The notes beneath the pieces were generated by a model that was not told where the DNA came from, ran no database searches, and saw only the letters and a program-made list of their open reading frames with translations. Source: a virus (Duplodnaviria > Heunggongvirae > Uroviricota > Caudoviricetes). From it: a stretch of DNA of 11,352 nucleotides. The stretch is taken from the IMG/VR virus record IMGVR_UViG_2585427742_000014; one strand, written 5' to 3'. This document shows, one piece after another, positions 1-9,580 of this stretch. The translations under genes were made by a program, and so were the position numbers. Within the stretch, counting starts at the first letter, position 1. Each line of letters opens with the position of its first letter.

Positions 1-147
1 ATGGCAAAGCCGATCATCACGCTCAATGGCCTAAAAATCGTCATTATGTTGGGAATGCTGGTCATTATTCTCTGCGGTATCCGTTTTGCCGCCGAGATCA
101 TCGTGCCGTTTATTCTCGCATTATTTATTGCTGTTATATATAACTAA
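1..147 (+). pseudogene. tqsA: 48-codon ORF at the window start; N-terminal fragment of an inner-membrane protein resembling the AI-2 exporter TqsA/YdgG family, apparently cut short at the island junction
   Basis: Own translation [48 protein letters not shown], hydrophobic and TM-like. From memory the first ~45 residues match E. coli TqsA, after which the frame diverges and stops. Unverified recall. Confidence 0.4.
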
Positions 148-885: not shown

Positions 886-920
886 TGTGCCCCCATCGCT
901 CTGATAGTCTGGTGTCGTCG

Positions 921-1100
921 GGTCCTTCCTGGAATTATGGCCCGTTACGGGGCGGCGACCTCGCGCGTTTTCACTATTTATGAAAATTTTTCGGGATCCA
1001 TGTCCGGTTTCTCTGCAAGTTAACCATATGAAAAATATAAAAACATGCTTTCCATGAACCGGACATGCGCAAAAAACAGACACTAAAACCGGACATCGAA
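921..1100 (+). other. cos-1: lambda-type cohesive-end site in plus orientation (cosQ-like flank, cosN 950-961 GGGCGGCGACCT, cosB-like region with three R-like elements and an AT-rich spacer)
   Basis: CGTTACG|GGGCGGCGACCT|CGCGCGTTTTCACTATTTATGAAAATTTTTCGG matches the phage lambda cos junction as I recall it (GGTTACG|GGGCGGCGACCT|CGCGGGTTTTCGCTATTTATGAAAATTTTCCGG). Downstream: ATGTCCGGTT at 1000-1009, AT-rich 1011-1050, AACCGGACAT at 1057-1066 and 1087-1096. Confidence 0.75.
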
Positions 1101-1164
1101 CCAGTTAACCGAAAGTGTGCACAAATCACATGCATTGCTGCGAGTGATTAACAAGTTATCGGCT

Positions 1165-1599
1165 TTACTGTTCTGTATCGGCTGATTGCTCCATGCTGGC
1201 ACGGCGAACGCTTATGGCATGACGCCACCCAGCCAGAAAGCCAGCCATTTTATTTCGTGCCTTGCTCACATCTTCCGGTGAATAGCCGTAAATCTGCAAA
1301 CCTTCATCAAATCGATGTTCTGTTTCTTCACTGGAGTACTCGTCACGCTCAGATGAAAGCAGCCTGGCAAACATAATTTTTTCCAGCGCACTGGTTTCTA
1401 CGTGATATCTGATGGTCTCAAGACGGCTTTTACCTGAAGACCAAAGCAATGTATGCCCGATGTGATAACCGCCAGACTTTCCGCGATCCGCATTAAGATA
1501 CGGCATCCCCTGTTTGGTCCATGCGCGAATAGTGGTTCTGTTAACCTTGAAATGTTCAGCTATTTCCTGCTGACTTACAAAACAAGCTTTATCAATCAT
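1165..1599 (-). CDS. Nu1-like small-terminase DNA-binding protein with a divergent C-terminus; candidate packaging-redirection factor (Rpp-like) or island TerS
   Basis: N-terminus VSQQEIAEHFKVNRTTIRAWTKQGMPYL resembles the winged-HTH of lambda gpNu1 (KKQLADIFGASIRTIQNWQEQGMPVL, from memory). At 144 aa it is shorter than Nu1 and the C-terminal half is unrelated. A cos site lies ~90 bp upstream. Confidence 0.7.
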   Translation of the reverse strand: MIDKACFVSQQEIAEHFKVNRTTIRAWTKQGMPYLNADRGKSGGYHIGHTLLWSSGKSRLETIRYHVETSALEKIMFARLLSSERDEYSSEETEHRFDEGLQIYGYSPEDVSKARNKMAGFLAGWRHAISVRRASMEQSADTEQ

Positions 1600-1733
1600 A
1601 ATGTTACCTTAACTGCATGGTTAAATATTAATCAAGTGGTGGTGGTGTCACCTTCACGGAAAAACGTCATAAATAGCGAAAACCCGCGAGGTCGCCGCCC
1701 CGTAACGGGTCCATAATTCCAGGAAGGACCCGT
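1600..1733 (-). other. cos-2: lambda-type cos site in minus orientation (cosN at 1689-1700 as reverse complement), in the lambda-like position immediately upstream of the Nu1-like gene
   Basis: Minus strand reads ACGGGTCCTTCCTGGAATTATGGACCCGTTACG|GGGCGGCGACCT|CGCGGGTTTTCGCTATTTATGACGTTTTTCCGTGAAGG. The 22 nt after cosN are identical to lambda as recalled, and CGTTTTTCCGTG resembles lambda R3. Confidence 0.75.
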
Positions 1734-1755
1734 AAAAAAGCCGGATTTCTCCGGC
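1734..1755 (-). terminator. Rho-independent terminator for the capsid operon (GCCGGA-TTTC-TCCGGC stem-loop followed by T6 on the minus strand)
   Basis: Hairpin 1740-1755 and A6 at 1734-1739 (T6 on the minus strand), 7 nt past the stop of the 1762..2175 ORF. Confidence 0.6.
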
Positions 1756-1761
1756 CTTGTC

Positions 1762-2175
1762 TCAGATGGTTTTCAGTATGCGATCGATGTCGCCGTCATC
1801 GCCCTGGTTTCTGCCATCGTATGCCATGCCAGCTGATACGGCTTGCGGGCTGTGCATGTCCATAAAGTTTTCAAAGGCTGCGGTAAGTTCCGGCGCAACC
1901 TTCGGACGTTCCTGCTCTATGGTCATGCTAAGGATGCTTTTAGCCGTACCAACATCGATACAAGGCACGTTTGCCATTGCACGCAACAGCGGCTGATAGT
2001 CTTTATGCTCATGAAGCGCCATAATCGCATCAGCGCGCGGCTTGTCCTGCTCTTCCAGTTTGTTTAGTTGATATACGGCCTCATAGGTTGATAAACCTCT
2101 GTCAGCCATTGCCCGCGCTTCGGCTTTAAATTTACTCGCCAGCGGTAGCGTCATGATGCTTTCATTCGTTGCCAT
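1762..2175 (-). CDS. Hypothetical protein (137 aa), last gene of the capsid operon
   Basis: ORF track; sits 12 nt downstream of the gpD-like gene and just before the terminator. No family recognised. Confidence 0.55.
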   Translation of the reverse strand: MATNESIMTLPLASKFKAEARAMADRGLSTYEAVYQLNKLEEQDKPRADAIMALHEHKDYQPLLRAMANVPCIDVGTAKSILSMTIEQERPKVAPELTAAFENFMDMHSPQAVSAGMAYDGRNQGDDGDIDRILKTI

Positions 2176-2187
2176 CGTTCCCCCTGC

Positions 2188-2523
2188 TTATCGGGCCAGC
2201 GGCTGAACGGATACGCCGGAACCCGCAAAGGCGGCGCATTTTTTCGCATCGGTGTCGACGCTCTCAGGCCAGTTAACGGCGGCAATATTGAATATCCCCG
2301 TCTTGTAACACTGTGCTGATTTCTGCTTTGACGTGTCCACAGGGTACGAGGTCAGATAAACAGCCTTGCCAGATTCCTTACCATCCCACGGCTTAAACTC
2401 GCCATTGTCCGCCAGCATCAGCGGGGTAAATTCCTGAATAACGCCAGCATCAGCGGCAAAATGTACCAGCGTCGTGGCGACCTGCTGACTGCCTGCAAAT
2501 AACTCAATGTATGGAGTGTCCAT
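2188..2523 (-). CDS. Head decoration protein, lambda gpD-like
   Basis: 111 aa; TPLMLADNGEFKPWDGKESGKAV...CYKTGIFNIAAVNWPESVDTDAKKCAAFAGSGVSVQ parallels lambda gpD (TPLMLDTSSRKLVAWDG...[36 protein letters not shown], from memory). Lies directly downstream of the capsid gene. Confidence 0.8.
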   Translation of the reverse strand: MDTPYIELFAGSQQVATTLVHFAADAGVIQEFTPLMLADNGEFKPWDGKESGKAVYLTSYPVDTSKQKSAQCYKTGIFNIAAVNWPESVDTDAKKCAAFAGSGVSVQPLAR

Positions 2524-2534
2524 AGAATCCCCCG

Positions 2535-3590
2535 TTAACCAATTTTGACGGTAACAAATTTGCGAATATCTGCCGGAACCGGCTGCGGTGCGCTGTGCGT
2601 CTGCACGTACTCAATCGCCGGATCGCCGTCCTCAATCCAGTTTTTCGGGTAAAACATGTTTTGCGTTGCGCCCGTTCTTACTGCGTCCTGATCCATAATC
2701 GCACCATAGGCCACCAGCCCTTTATTGTTGGTGTTGCCCAGAACCAGCAAATCAGGCTCAAGGAAATATTTTTCTGTGCCGTCGCTGTCAGTGTATTTGC
2801 CGGAATAGACGATAAGGGCAATATCGCCCAGATAGCCTTTAAAGCTCACCACTTCGCCCAGGTTTTTACAGGCCAGCTCTGCGGCGGACTCTGAACCACG
2901 GGAAAGATCGTACAGCTCACGGAATTTTTTAAAGCTGCGTAACGTTCGCCATACCTCAGCGCCCATAATCATGACGTTTGCGGGGCAACCAGCCTGATCA
3001 GCATAAAGCTCGATGTCATAGATTGGGTCGTGCATGTCTTTATCCTGCTCGGACCATTTTTTACCCTTGGCCTGCTCTATGATGCAGTTTTCCGGTATTT
3101 TCCAGTCGATTTCATAGCGTTCTATGCCTTCGCCCTCAATGATGTTTTTTCCGGTCGTTACCGCATTCACCGCCAGCCATTCCACGCGTGCCTTAATGGC
3201 GTTTATCTGGCGGCGCATGTTGCCAGTAATCAGGCGCATACGGCGATAGGTAGGGTCGTTAAGCTGTGCCGGATCTTCTCCAGCCATGCGCATGATGGTT
3301 TTCGTTGGATCGATTTCGTGCTTTGGCTTCATGTAGCCAGGTTTGATTGTGCTGGTTTCGTACCCTTTATCGCGCTGAACCTGGCTACCCACCATAGGCG
3401 AACAAAACGCCGACATGGTGACTTCTTCAATGTCCAGGGTATCCAGCATGATGTTTTGCGTGCTGAATGTCGCCACGTTCGGGAAAAACAGCGTGGTAAA
3501 CAGAGGGCTGAATTTAAAATCCGCAATATCCCCGCGATTCAGGTACATGAAAAGCTGGTTAGTGTTAAGTGCCGTTGCTTTGCCTGCCAT
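2535..3590 (-). CDS. Major capsid protein, lambda gpE family
   Basis: 351 aa; shared motifs with lambda gpE as recalled: DFKFSPLF / KFKFDPLF, PGYMKPKHEI / PGYVKPKHEV, DPTYRRMRLI / DPAYRRRRII, YPKNWIEDGDPAIEY / YPKNWVTTGDPAREF. GGGGG-type RBS 6 nt upstream. Confidence 0.9.
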   Translation of the reverse strand: MAGKATALNTNQLFMYLNRGDIADFKFSPLFTTLFFPNVATFSTQNIMLDTLDIEEVTMSAFCSPMVGSQVQRDKGYETSTIKPGYMKPKHEIDPTKTIMRMAGEDPAQLNDPTYRRMRLITGNMRRQINAIKARVEWLAVNAVTTGKNIIEGEGIERYEIDWKIPENCIIEQAKGKKWSEQDKDMHDPIYDIELYADQAGCPANVMIMGAEVWRTLRSFKKFRELYDLSRGSESAAELACKNLGEVVSFKGYLGDIALIVYSGKYTDSDGTEKYFLEPDLLVLGNTNNKGLVAYGAIMDQDAVRTGATQNMFYPKNWIEDGDPAIEYVQTHSAPQPVPADIRKFVTVKIG

Positions 3591-3796
3591 TATTCACCCC
3601 CATAATTTTTATGCATCCCAAGCGCCGCAAGTAAATAAGAGCGTACAAGTGAACCTATCGACGGCTCCGGCGTCATCAGCGGATCCAGTCCAGCCGCCAC
3701 GCCAGCCTCATAGTTTTTTTTGTGGCGCTGCTTGAGCACCTCCACGATTTCGGGGCTTATGTACACCGAAACACCGCCTTTTTTCTCTTCAGCCAT
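3590..3796 (-). CDS. Hypothetical small protein (68 aa), first gene of the capsid operon, translationally coupled to the capsid gene
   Basis: Stop overlaps the capsid ATG (TAATG); AGAGGAA-type RBS upstream. No family recognised. Confidence 0.5.
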   Translation of the reverse strand: MAEEKKGGVSVYISPEIVEVLKQRHKKNYEAGVAAGLDPLMTPEPSIGSLVRSYLLAALGMHKNYGGE

Positions 3797-7924: not shown

Positions 7925-8382
7925 AAGCCTACCCCCTGACGAATACGGGCGACAAAAATCAGATGTGCGTGCGGCAGCTGTGCACGTGCTTCGCGCTCAG
8001 TGGCAGCGGTAACGGTGAATATTGCAATGCTGTCTGTCAGGCACTGCATAAAGCGCCAGACAAAATAAGGGCGTGCGGATACAGCCATGTGAAAGGCTCC
8101 CAGATGAATTTTAAGGAGTCTCGCTACTACGCTGTCAAACATGGTGGCGAGACGTAACAGGGTTGACAGACTGGTCATCTGGAAACCAGCGAGCACAAAG
8201 GCTCCCCCGTTACGCCCCGCCATAATGCGGGTATGGGTAGGTTTACGGACACAAAAAAACCGCTTATCGGATGTGGGCGGCTGTCCGCCAGATGTATTCA
8301 GGCTGTCAAACCCGGTCGCCATGTGGGCGACGGGGGAAGCATACAGCCCCGTGATAATTTTTTGCAAGCGGTTTTTACGCAT
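7921..8382 (-). CDS. Small protein, paralog 1, with a C-terminal motif shared with 8375..8578 (Icd-like/Ash-like small-protein type; start uncertain, alternative ATG at 8088)
   Basis: C-terminus YFVWRF...TAATEREARAQLPHAHLIFVARIRQG parallels the downstream paralog. The ATG at 8382 overlaps the upstream stop (ATGCGTAA) with AGGGG 7 nt upstream; the alternative ATG at 8088 has GGAG 8 nt upstream. Confidence 0.45.
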   Translation of the reverse strand: MRKNRLQKIITGLYASPVAHMATGFDSLNTSGGQPPTSDKRFFCVRKPTHTRIMAGRNGGAFVLAGFQMTSLSTLLRLATMFDSVVARLLKIHLGAFHMAVSARPYFVWRFMQCLTDSIAIFTVTAATEREARAQLPHAHLIFVARIRQGVGL

Positions 8383-8578
8383 GATATGACCCCTGGCGAA
8401 TACGGGCAGCGAATACCATCACGCAGCCAGCCGGAGATTGCTGACGCGCTTCCTGTTCGCTGGTGGCCTCGATGGTAATCACGCGCGGTTGTGCCGTGCT
8501 CAGGGCGATAAAACGCCAGATGTATTTATTCAGGTTGTACGAGTCCCGCCCTTGCGGGTGTCTGGTATAATTTCTCAT
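8375..8578 (-). CDS. Small protein, paralog 2 (67 aa), Icd-like/Ash-like type
   Basis: MRNYTRHPQGRDSYNLNKYIWRF...EATSEQEARQQSPAGCVMVFAARIRQG; GAGG 5 nt upstream of the ATG at 8578. This is the 3' end of the otherwise implausible 382-aa ORF. Family assignment is from memory and unverified. Confidence 0.5.
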   Translation of the reverse strand: MRNYTRHPQGRDSYNLNKYIWRFIALSTAQPRVITIEATSEQEARQQSPAGCVMVFAARIRQGSYHA

Positions 8579-8650
8579 AGCTACCTCGATACTTTCGCTA
8601 TCGTTGGTGGTTAGAAGCCCTGCATGTGTTCCAGCACTGCGGGGCTTTGC

Positions 8651-8755
8651 TGTACATACACCACAATCATTGGTGTGTGTACAGATTAAATTTAAGTGCG
8701 CTACAGTGTCAAGTGTTTTATTTACACACCTTTTGGTGTAATGTATGCACACCTC
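8651..8755. promoter_or_regulatory. Divergent promoter/operator region with inverted repeats built on CACACC / GGTGTG
   Basis: GTACATACACCA (8652-8663) and TGGTGTGTGTAC (8671-8682) form a 12-bp inverted repeat with one mismatch and a 7-bp spacer; further ACACACC / GGTGT / CACACC copies at 8724-8753. Lies between divergent genes starting at 8578 (minus) and 8775 (plus). Confidence 0.45.
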
Positions 8756-8774
8756 AAAATAACCGGACATTCTG

Positions 8775-9080
8775 ATGGCAACAGGAAATATCAACAGCAG
8801 ATCGCAAATGAAAAATATCCGCTTCCCCCATGATGTAATCGAGGAAATGGAAAATTCGAAAACGGAAGGGGAAACAATAGCCGCTTTCGTGATTACAGCC
8901 GTTCGCGGTGAGATCGCCCGCCGCCAGGCAGAAGGAAGCGGAGAAAATCCCCTGGTTTCTTCGCTCGATGCACTGGCGCAGGTGGAAAAAATCGGAGTCA
9001 AAGCAGCCGAGGAGATCGGGCAACTCATCACCGTCGCGCGTGAAGAACTCCAGCGTCGCAAGGCCAAAGAGCAGGAGTGA
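8775..9080 (+). CDS. Ribbon-helix-helix-like DNA-binding protein (101 aa; start uncertain)
   Basis: KNIRFPHDVIEEMENSKTEGETIAAFVITAVRGEIARR fits a beta-strand/helix/helix RHH pattern; non-repetitive charged composition. Weak SD at 8775. Confidence 0.55.
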   Translation: MATGNINSRSQMKNIRFPHDVIEEMENSKTEGETIAAFVITAVRGEIARRQAEGSGENPLVSSLDALAQVEKIGVKAAEEIGQLITVAREELQRRKAKEQE

Positions 9081-9137
9081 CCATCACCAGCGCCGTGGTG
9101 TAAGGTATTACGGCGCATTGCTATGCAGGACAACACA

Positions 9138-9311
9138 ATGACCGATAAAGAATTGACCAAAACATTATCACCGGCACGGAAAAGACGGCGCAGAAAGATA
9201 GAGCATGAATCAGAAAGATTCGCGCCATGTGCTTTTGCCCTTGAGCAATTCCTTAAAGAGTACAGGGAAAAGCGCTCATTGCAGGTATGGCAACGAACTG
9301 AACCAGACTGA
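9138..9311 (+). CDS. Small basic protein (57 aa from the ATG at 9138; the ORF starts at 9123)
   Basis: AGGA 7 nt upstream of the ATG at 9138; contains ARKRRRRK; followed by a strong terminator. Confidence 0.4.
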   Translation: MTDKELTKTLSPARKRRRRKIEHESERFAPCAFALEQFLKEYREKRSLQVWQRTEPD

Positions 9312-9406
9312 TTGCATTGCCCACCAGCCTGATAACGGCTATCATCCCCGTGCTTATGTTTGGGATCACACACACAAACGGCGCAGCGGGTTATCTGTTC
9401 AGAAAG

Positions 9407-9434
9407 GCGGCTCCATTTCGGGGCCGCTTTTTTT
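9407..9434 (+). terminator. Rho-independent terminator of the plus-strand RHH operon
   Basis: 8-bp stem GCGGCTCC / GGGGCCGC (one G-U pair), loop ATTTC, followed by T7 at 9428-9434. Confidence 0.7.
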
Positions 9435-9580
9435 ATACCTGAAAAACCCCAATTTTGTTGTTTTTCAGTTTCACCAGGGCGAACGAATCCCCGCCCACGT
9501 TCTGGCGTATATTCAATCTTCATGGTTATAGCTCTGTGTTCAGATGATTGATGTGTGGCGGCTGCGTGCCGCCAGCGTGA

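Follow-up and report, generated by a model that had tools for sequence, protein, structure and literature searches.

A second, inverted cos site in an EcCICFT073-family island of Escherichia coli as a candidate packaging site for another class of helper phages

Introduction

Why should a genetic element that is packaged from cos carry two such sites that face one another? The question is raised by the virus record IMGVR_UViG_2585427742_000014, a stretch of 11,352 nucleotides (hereafter the window) in which two lambda-type cos sites in inverted orientation bracket a small gene at positions 1165-1599. The window contains one complete island of ~11.3 kb that interrupts the gene tqsA in E. coli strain 300033 according to the RefSeq annotation. 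This island is a phage-inducible chromosomal island (PICI) of the EcCICFT073 family, and we regard the identification of its packaging module with that of EcCICFT073 as practically certain. A preliminary description made from the letters of the window alone took the bracketed gene to be Nu1-like, found the inverted pair of sites unexpected and offered three ideas to account for it: two packaging specificities for different helpers, a recombination scar or a decoy.

The pair itself is already known, since the cos1 and cos2 sites of EcCICFT073 were published in 2018 and 2019, and to describe it once more adds nothing beyond a feature that has been dissected experimentally. EcCICFT073 contains two cosN sequences, and a plasmid into which either site has been cloned can be transferred by lambda and phi80; deletion of cos1 lowers the transfer of the island, deletion of cos2 raises it and the double deletion abolishes it, while the island is still transferred at reduced frequency when cos2 alone is left (PMC6092414). 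The single-site deletions suggested in the preliminary description have thus largely been made, with lambda and phi80 as the helpers (PMC6092414; PMC6739421). The island protein RppA heterodimerises with the TerS protein of lambda-type helpers, blocks packaging from the phage cos and redirects the terminase to cos1 (PMC6739421). Swaps of cosB and a phi80 chimera further showed that RppA stimulates only sites with the cosB of cos1 (PMC6739421). The published cos2 was compared with lambda, phi80 and phage 4 of CFT073, and no phage cosB was identified (PMC6092414; PMC6739421). In a later study, Murialdo and Feiss (2022) took PICIs to have one N15-like cos that lacks repeated R sequences, and a second cos is not mentioned there (PMC9026076). 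Neither “inverted” nor “orientation” is used anywhere in the main texts of the two earlier papers (PMC6092414; PMC6739421), and the third likewise lacks “inverted” (PMC9026076).

There is thus a loose end: if transfer of EcCICFT073 by lambda and phi80 improves once cos2 is deleted, why has this second cos been kept? What we add here is that cos2 is a modular copy of cos sites found in prophages, and we also offer a rationale for its inverted orientation.

Results

The window has exactly two copies of the 12-nt cosN sequence GGGCGGCGACCT, at positions 950-961 on the plus strand and 1689-1700 on the minus strand, just as first described. The chance expectation for this sequence in the window is 0.07, and none of 200 shuffles gave two matches. 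The copies are embedded in inverted arms with the outer bounds 919-996 and 1654-1732, within which 941-996 pairs with 1654-1709 (56 nt, 88% complementary) and 919-943 with 1708-1732 (25 nt, 96%). From cosQ to I2, 71 of 80 aligned positions are the same in both arms. An alignment to the lambda cos, which the preliminary description had called for, gave 63/79 common positions for the arm at 950 and 65/81 for the arm at 1700. More than ~35 nt beyond cosN, the sequences of the two sites are unrelated, and the near-identity that had been attributed to cosQ, cosN and cosB therefore holds for cosQ, cosN and I2 and does not extend to the cosB regions. The general layout was described correctly: of the two lambda-type sites, one lies upstream of the gene at a lambda-like position, and the other points toward the 3′ end of the gene and has an array of R elements that is complete but different.

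Judging from the sequences in Fig S1A of PMC6739421, the left arm (919-996, plus strand) matches the published cos2 and the right arm (1654-1732, minus strand) matches the published cos1, which is the reverse of the names “cos-1” and “cos-2” used at first. We also considered that the array-bearing site might be the published cos1, but the supplementary sequences give the opposite naming (PMC6739421). On the plus strand, cos2 consists of the cosQ core GGGTCCTTCC at 920-929, cosN at 950-961 and an I2-like segment from 962 to ~996. On the minus strand, cos1 has its cosQ core at 1731-1722, cosN at 1700-1689 and an I2-like segment that extends down to ~1654.

Beyond the I2-like segment, cos2 continues into a phage-type cosB (1000-1096, plus strand), in which an R3-like element and an A/T-rich spacer are followed by R2-like and R1-like elements. 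All three elements are exact copies of ATGTCCGGTT, located at 1000-1009 (+), 1057-1066 (-) and 1087-1096 (-), which corresponds to bp 51-60, 108-117 and 138-147 from the cohesive end. The number of matches expected in the whole window is 0.69, even with one mismatch allowed. Thus, cos2 has cosQ, a 12-nt cosN and I2 in the order and spacing of lambda, and R repeats at lambda-like positions. A fourth exact copy of ATGTCCGGTT at 8761-8770 (-), inside the open reading frame (ORF) at 8375-9523, is probably there by chance.

The core of cos2 is identical at 79 of 79 positions to that of the site in CFT073 (L003:8309, minus strand), and the sequence downstream of the core equals that of the published cos2, once misread letters in the text of the supplement are discounted. 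A search of a phage collection revealed that the segment 962-1096 of the window is 97% identical over 135 nt to the phages PhiR12_1, PhiR12_2, PhiR12_2_star, PhiR12_4 and PhiR12_5. In these phages, the matching segment sits between Rz and Nu1 and represents the phage's own cos, with the order R3, spacer, R2 and R1, directly upstream of the gene for a 169-aa TerS with a DNA-binding domain of a non-lambda type. An earlier candidate, the phage-21-type cosB of CFT073 phage 4, bears only a loose likeness to the array (ATGTCGG versus ATGTCCGG) and was superseded by the near-exact match to PhiR12.

The array of ATGTCCGGTT elements was found in 226 of 5426 complete E. coli genomes. Four matches outside the islands, of lower identity or coverage (L007-L010), were inspected, and all four belong to lambdoid prophages in which the array is located between the lysis genes and the gene for the 169-aa TerS WP_000235436.1 or a close relative. 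This TerS matches the Pfam family Phage_Nu1 over the C-terminal residues 49-150 only, and its N-terminal DNA-binding domain is unlike those of lambda Nu1 and RppA alike. DNA for the N-terminal region of the PhiR12-type TerS is present in 1166 of the 5426 genomes (21%). Taken together, these comparisons indicate that cos2 is a near-exact copy of a complete cos (cosN-I2-R3-spacer-R2-R1) from a common class of lambdoid phages that differ from lambda in their packaging specificity.

The related islands suggest that this copy is exchangeable. From 604 to 1650, the window is 98.4% identical to CFT073. A sister island inserted into the same tqsA site in E. coli elppa4 (L017) is essentially identical in the ORF to the left of the module, the left cosQ and cosN, rppA and cos1, but in place of the left cosB (L017:659-880) it has an unrelated segment, in which the GGTTGTTGT elements have the orientations + - +. 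This variant of the array occurs in more than 20 of the genomes listed. Over its full length, and at all three elements, the segment can be aligned with the cosB found in a prophage of an O111 strain (L018), where it lies directly upstream of the gene for a 168-aa TerS (WP_001426432.1); other prophages also match the L017 array. The TerS of this prophage (168 aa, L018:2400-2906) and the PhiR12-type TerS (169 aa, L006:2684-3193) have identical C-terminal halves but unrelated N-terminal DNA-binding domains, and each is paired with a different cosB array. This pair of proteins represents a natural exchange, within one lineage of phages, in which the DNA-binding domain and cosB changed together.

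A more diverged island adjoins phoQ in E. coli 2013C-4465 (L002:4040-4980). It has kept the flanks and both inverted cos arms but encodes, in place of RppA, a 180-aa protein of the Phage_Nu1 family with a DNA-binding domain that resembles the TerS of the O111 prophage, and it carries a lambda-like R3-R2-R1 array of its own (CAGATCC...TTCT). In an island that encodes RppB (L015), an inverted pair at 2862-2933 and 3591-3662 flanks rppB and has the cosQ core and a different type of cosN in both arms. These arms are 78% complementary overall and differ within the presumed cohesive end (ACGTGT versus AGCCAT); the rpp-proximal copy is followed by a CACCACCAC box and the distal copy by an R-like array. 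The cosQ core is retained in every second site (CFT073, L002 and L015). A Rpp island in Klebsiella (L011) has a single lambda-type cos (2898-2909) upstream of rpp, also with the CACCACCAC box, and neither a lambda-type cosN nor inverted repeats were found at a locus in Salmonella (L014). When the arrays of L002, L015 and L017 were used to search the phage collection, the matches were weak or absent, and the L015 array had no counterpart there; the L017 array was instead matched to prophages in E. coli genomes. When one genome per species was scanned with an alignment of Rpp proteins (n=11), 85 pattern stretches matched, none of which was confirmed by tblastn, and the related Rpp islands were instead found by searches with individual homologues. 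The overall pattern suggests that the family is built around the rpp-proximal site, and that the second inverted site is an elaboration in E. coli, the cosB of which tracks the TerS classes of the phages independently of Rpp.

The gene between the two sites (1165-1599, minus strand) encodes a 144-aa product that matches the crystal structure of RppC (PDB 6hlk/6hn7; E=4.5e-31, residues 2-125) and is identical at 142 of 144 positions to the RppA of CFT073, the N-terminus of which is the same as that given for RppA in the supplement of the 2019 paper (PMC6739421). A Pfam scan of this product gave only weak matches to generic helix-turn-helix families and none to Phage_Nu1, a family that is matched by lambda Nu1, by the TerS proteins of CFT073 phage 4 and PhiR12, and by the protein of the L002 island. 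On the basis of these matches, and with no match to Phage_Nu1, we reject the initial assignment of the gene as Nu1-like and identify it as rppA (redirecting phage packaging protein A), whose winged-helix DNA-binding domain mimics that of the lambda TerS; Rpp proteins combine such a domain with dimerisation helices.

The site upstream of rppA has a lambda-type cosQ and cosN without the R sites of lambda. Its cosN is separated by 89 nt from the start codon, which places the ATG at bp 102 in cohesive-end numbering. Here, the sequence AGGTGACACCACCACCAC at bp 48-65 (window 1636-1653, minus strand) is the R3-PICI proposed by Murialdo and Feiss as the element bound by the Rpp-TerS complex, and the conserved core ACCACCACC is found at bp 55-63 (window 1646-1638). 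According to this proposal, bp 55-63 are identical in four islands (PICI-A, -B, -C and -G) and rpp starts at bp 102, a position also published for the ATG of PICI-C (PMC9026076). The short flank at this site, first described as being of a lambda-like R3 type, is thus R3-PICI and does not resemble the R3 of lambda. For a time we considered the CACCACCAC box, which is shared with the RppB island and the Klebsiella island, to be a new element, but rejected this since it has already been proposed as R3-PICI (PMC9026076).

In its core, cos1 is identical at 74 of 80 positions between the window and CFT073. The spacer between cosQ and cosN in this arm (1708-1732) is TTCCTGGAATTATGGA in the window, as in the left arm, whereas the same rppA-proximal spacer is TTTCCGGCATATGGA in CFT073 (L003:7527-7558) and in the L017 island. 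Correspondingly, the identity between the two arms is 71/80 in the window versus 66/80 in CFT073. The cos2-type spacer in the cos1 arm of the window looks like the outcome of gene conversion between the arms, or of an exchange with an island of the L002 type.

A terminator-like hairpin, GCCGGAGAAAUCCGGC followed by U6 (1734-1755, minus strand), lies directly before the cosQ of cos1 and ends the upstream operon with the capsid gene. The hairpin was missed by a consensus terminator scan of the window but was confirmed by folding (-16.6 kcal/mol, z=-3.9), and it is retained in CFT073 and L002. Because such a strong hairpin abuts cosQ, rppA is probably transcribed from a promoter of its own within the ~90 nt that separate cosN from the ATG, where two weak sigma-70-like matches were found.

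The module is flanked by conserved genes. To the left, a 93-aa hypothetical ORF (WP_000133427.1; 604-885, minus strand) starts 35 nt outside the left cosQ; it is identical in the sister island L017, and the same gene order is observed in CFT073 and L002. To the right, a 137-aa hypothetical ORF (1762-2175, minus strand) is the last gene of an operon for a capsid and a decoration protein, which according to Pfam encodes a lambda D-like head decoration protein at 2188-2523 (-) (HDPD, E=2.5e-17) as well as, at 2535-3590 (-), a lambda E-like major capsid protein (Phage_cap_E, E=2.6e-50). Genes for both of these proteins are also present in EcCICFT073. The island has an integrase at one end, a gene of the primase family, genes for SSB and for Icd-like proteins, then the capsid and decoration genes, and the cos region at the far end. 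An integrase at the end, a primase and replication module, a size of ~11 kb and a chromosomal attachment (att) site are all features of a PICI, and the island with the same gene order that adjoins phoQ in the CFT073 chromosome is EcCICFT073, the model PICI of Gram-negative bacteria. The insertion has split tqsA, a gene for an autoinducer-2 (AI-2) transporter, into two pseudogene fragments (window 1-144 and the surrounding locus). The island also carries three genes or gene fragments for Icd-like cell division inhibitors and a YlcI/YnfO gene.

A search with the left flank and the rppA cassette as the query identified no inverted isomer among the 60 best-scoring genomes, in all of which the cassette is collinear with the flank. 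With a longer query from the left flank, the number of genomes dropped from 53 to 42, which is probably explained by different integration sites.

Discussion

We favor the explanation that cos2 allows packaging without Rpp by a second class of helper phages, and that the inversion keeps the two sites stable within one island; on the comparisons presented here, we consider this reasonably probable. The island would then have two routes into phage particles. In the first, the heterodimer of RppA and a lambda-type TerS would redirect the terminase to cos1. Packaging specificities fall into the lambda, 21 and N15 classes (PMC4669245), and Rpp may be unable to hijack helpers with a TerS DNA-binding domain that is not of the lambda type. 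In the second route, helpers with the other class of TerS would package the island directly from cos2, in the opposite direction to cos1 around the replicating concatemer. Packaging would proceed from 950 toward higher coordinates, and from 1700 toward lower coordinates and thus toward rppA, and either direction would yield whole units of the island on a concatemer. Whether cos2 serves to widen the range of helpers seems to us about evenly balanced. Broader still is the idea that the second inverted cos is a swappable adaptor of helper range, which combines a Rpp-redirected cos1 with direct mimicry at cos2 in an orientation that has been selected for, and this we hold tentatively, at slightly less than an even chance.

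The orientation of the sites may follow from the rules of lambda packaging. Initiation requires both cosN and cosB, whereas termination is not specific for cosB (PMC4669245), and by analogy with lambda, termination would need cosQ, cosN and I2 in the correct orientation and would ignore the specificity of cosB. Two sites in direct orientation would therefore be expected to terminate against each other, and the 0.74-kb segment with rppA would be lost upon circularisation. In an inverted pair, each site would pair only with its own copies, since a translocating terminase would meet the cosQ of the other site on the wrong side. Inversion would thus be the arrangement in which two sites can coexist, and seen in this light the pair is not paradoxical, in contrast to the initial impression. 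With lambda or phi80 as the helper, cos2 would be a weak, non-cognate competitor located 0.74 kb into the DNA packaged from cos1, and a cut there would abort packaging. The increased transfer after deletion of cos2 may be explained in this way, as the loss of a weak competing site for a non-cognate helper such as lambda.

That same increase in transfer by lambda and phi80 (PMC6092414) could also mean that cos2 is vestigial or neutral, a piece of a phage cos that was captured together with the rppA cassette and has been kept as harmless or homogenised against cos1 by gene conversion. The Klebsiella island without a second cos fits this notion, as does the exchange of sequence between the arms, with 71/80 common positions in the window compared with 66/80 in CFT073. 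We nevertheless consider it unlikely. Complete, differing R3-R2-R1 arrays that match those of prophages follow an intact cosQ-cosN-I2 in at least two lineages of RppA islands, and arrays of the same layout are found in L002 and in the RppB islands. The array in the window has kept 97% identity to the phage site over 135 nt with three exact repeats, and cos2 alone supports residual transfer (PMC6092414). For the same reasons, the recombination scar envisaged in the preliminary description is a poor fit, given that cosQ, cosN and I2 and the complete R arrays have been retained in several diverged islands.

The faithful copying of the phage TerS binding sites would also suit a device for interference, in which the array on amplified island DNA titrates the TerS of the helper or draws its terminase into unproductive cuts and thereby lowers the yield of phages, and hindering the packaging of the helper is a known theme of this module (PMC6739421). 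A sponge of this kind, however, could do without cosQ and without an exactly preserved cosN, both of which have been conserved in all variants, and an island from which cos1 has been deleted still transfers through cos2 (PMC6092414), a result that likewise conflicts with the earlier idea of a mere decoy; interference strikes us as quite improbable. The inverted arms might alternatively serve as handles for recombination, to flip the rppA segment or to exchange the specificity cassette between islands and phages. This would account for the inner segments that are wholly different between islands with near-identical flanks (the window and L002), for the exchange of the cosB sub-segment only in L017 and for the signs of conversion between the arms. 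But with the cassette collinear with its flank and no inverted isomer in the 60 genomes, and with one breakpoint of the L017 swap inside the segment rather than at the arms, a role as handles is also decidedly doubtful. Exchange at a conserved cos is in any case expected as a side effect, and the existence of two sites would be left unexplained. Among the three ideas first put forward, the present comparisons favor that of two packaging specificities, each for a different helper.

Several observations nevertheless speak against a second packaging site of the kind that we propose. No match to WATCAANNNNTTR with one mismatch or less, as expected for the IHF site I1, was found in the A/T-rich spacer between R3 and R2 (1010-1056), and the orientation of the repeats in cos2 is + - - as opposed to + - + in lambda. 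The published tests of the cos deletions made use of lambda and phi80 as the only helpers. The Klebsiella Rpp island has no inverted partner for its cos, and the second site must therefore be dispensable for the family. CFT073 contains the island and has the array in one place only, with no second copy. Nor was the co-occurrence of islands and cognate prophages informative, since the 60 sampled rows included one island-bearing genome (strain 401656) and the TerS DNA is present in as many as 21% of the genomes. Finally, the argument from orientation is inferred from lambda genetics.

The nearest known system is EcCICFT073 (Fillol-Salom 2018, 2019), which has the same gene order, the same two sites and a RppA identical at 142 of 144 positions, but which adjoins phoQ whereas the island in the window is inserted into tqsA with a cos2-type spacer in its cos1 arm. 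The R3-PICI model (PMC9026076) agrees with the window in the position of ACCACCACC at bp 55-63 and of the rppA ATG at bp 102; no repeated R sequences were described there, whereas the second cos of the window has three. Compared with the lambda cos (cosQ-cosN-I2-R3-I1-R2-R1-Nu1), the left cos has an exact cosN, a lambda-like I2 and its R3 at bp 51-60 as compared with bp 50-65 in lambda. It differs in that its R element is ATGTCCGGTT rather than the CGTTTCCTTTCT of lambda, in that R1 is oriented as R2 and in that no IHF consensus was found; moreover, no terminase gene follows the left cos, and its array faces the 3′ end of rppA. PICI 11capE, which is embedded in its helper, is another Gram-negative PICI that has a copy of the cos of a lambdoid helper, at the usual position of the PICI cos (258 bp, 90% identity), but a single shared site was reported, and neither a Rpp-dependent second site nor an inverted pair was discussed (PMC10111431). 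A parallel to a satellite with more than one helper-type cos is SaPIbov4, with two putative cos sites (cited in PMC6092414). SaPIbov4 and SaPIbov5, the latter packaged by cos, are however Gram-positive islands with HNH-dependent cos phages and have no Rpp.

The comparisons presented here speak to the question of why EcCICFT073 keeps cos2. Its cosB, for which earlier authors identified no relation to any phage, is 97% identical to the cosB of a class of prophages whose TerS N-terminal DNA is present in about one-fifth of the complete E. coli genomes, and among sister islands this cosB is exchanged independently of rppA. Both the hypothesis of an extended helper range and the rationale for the inverted orientation can be tested with existing strains. 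If the helper-range hypothesis proves true, sequence-based predictions of host and helper range would have to change for these virulence-associated satellites and for delivery vehicles based on PICIs.

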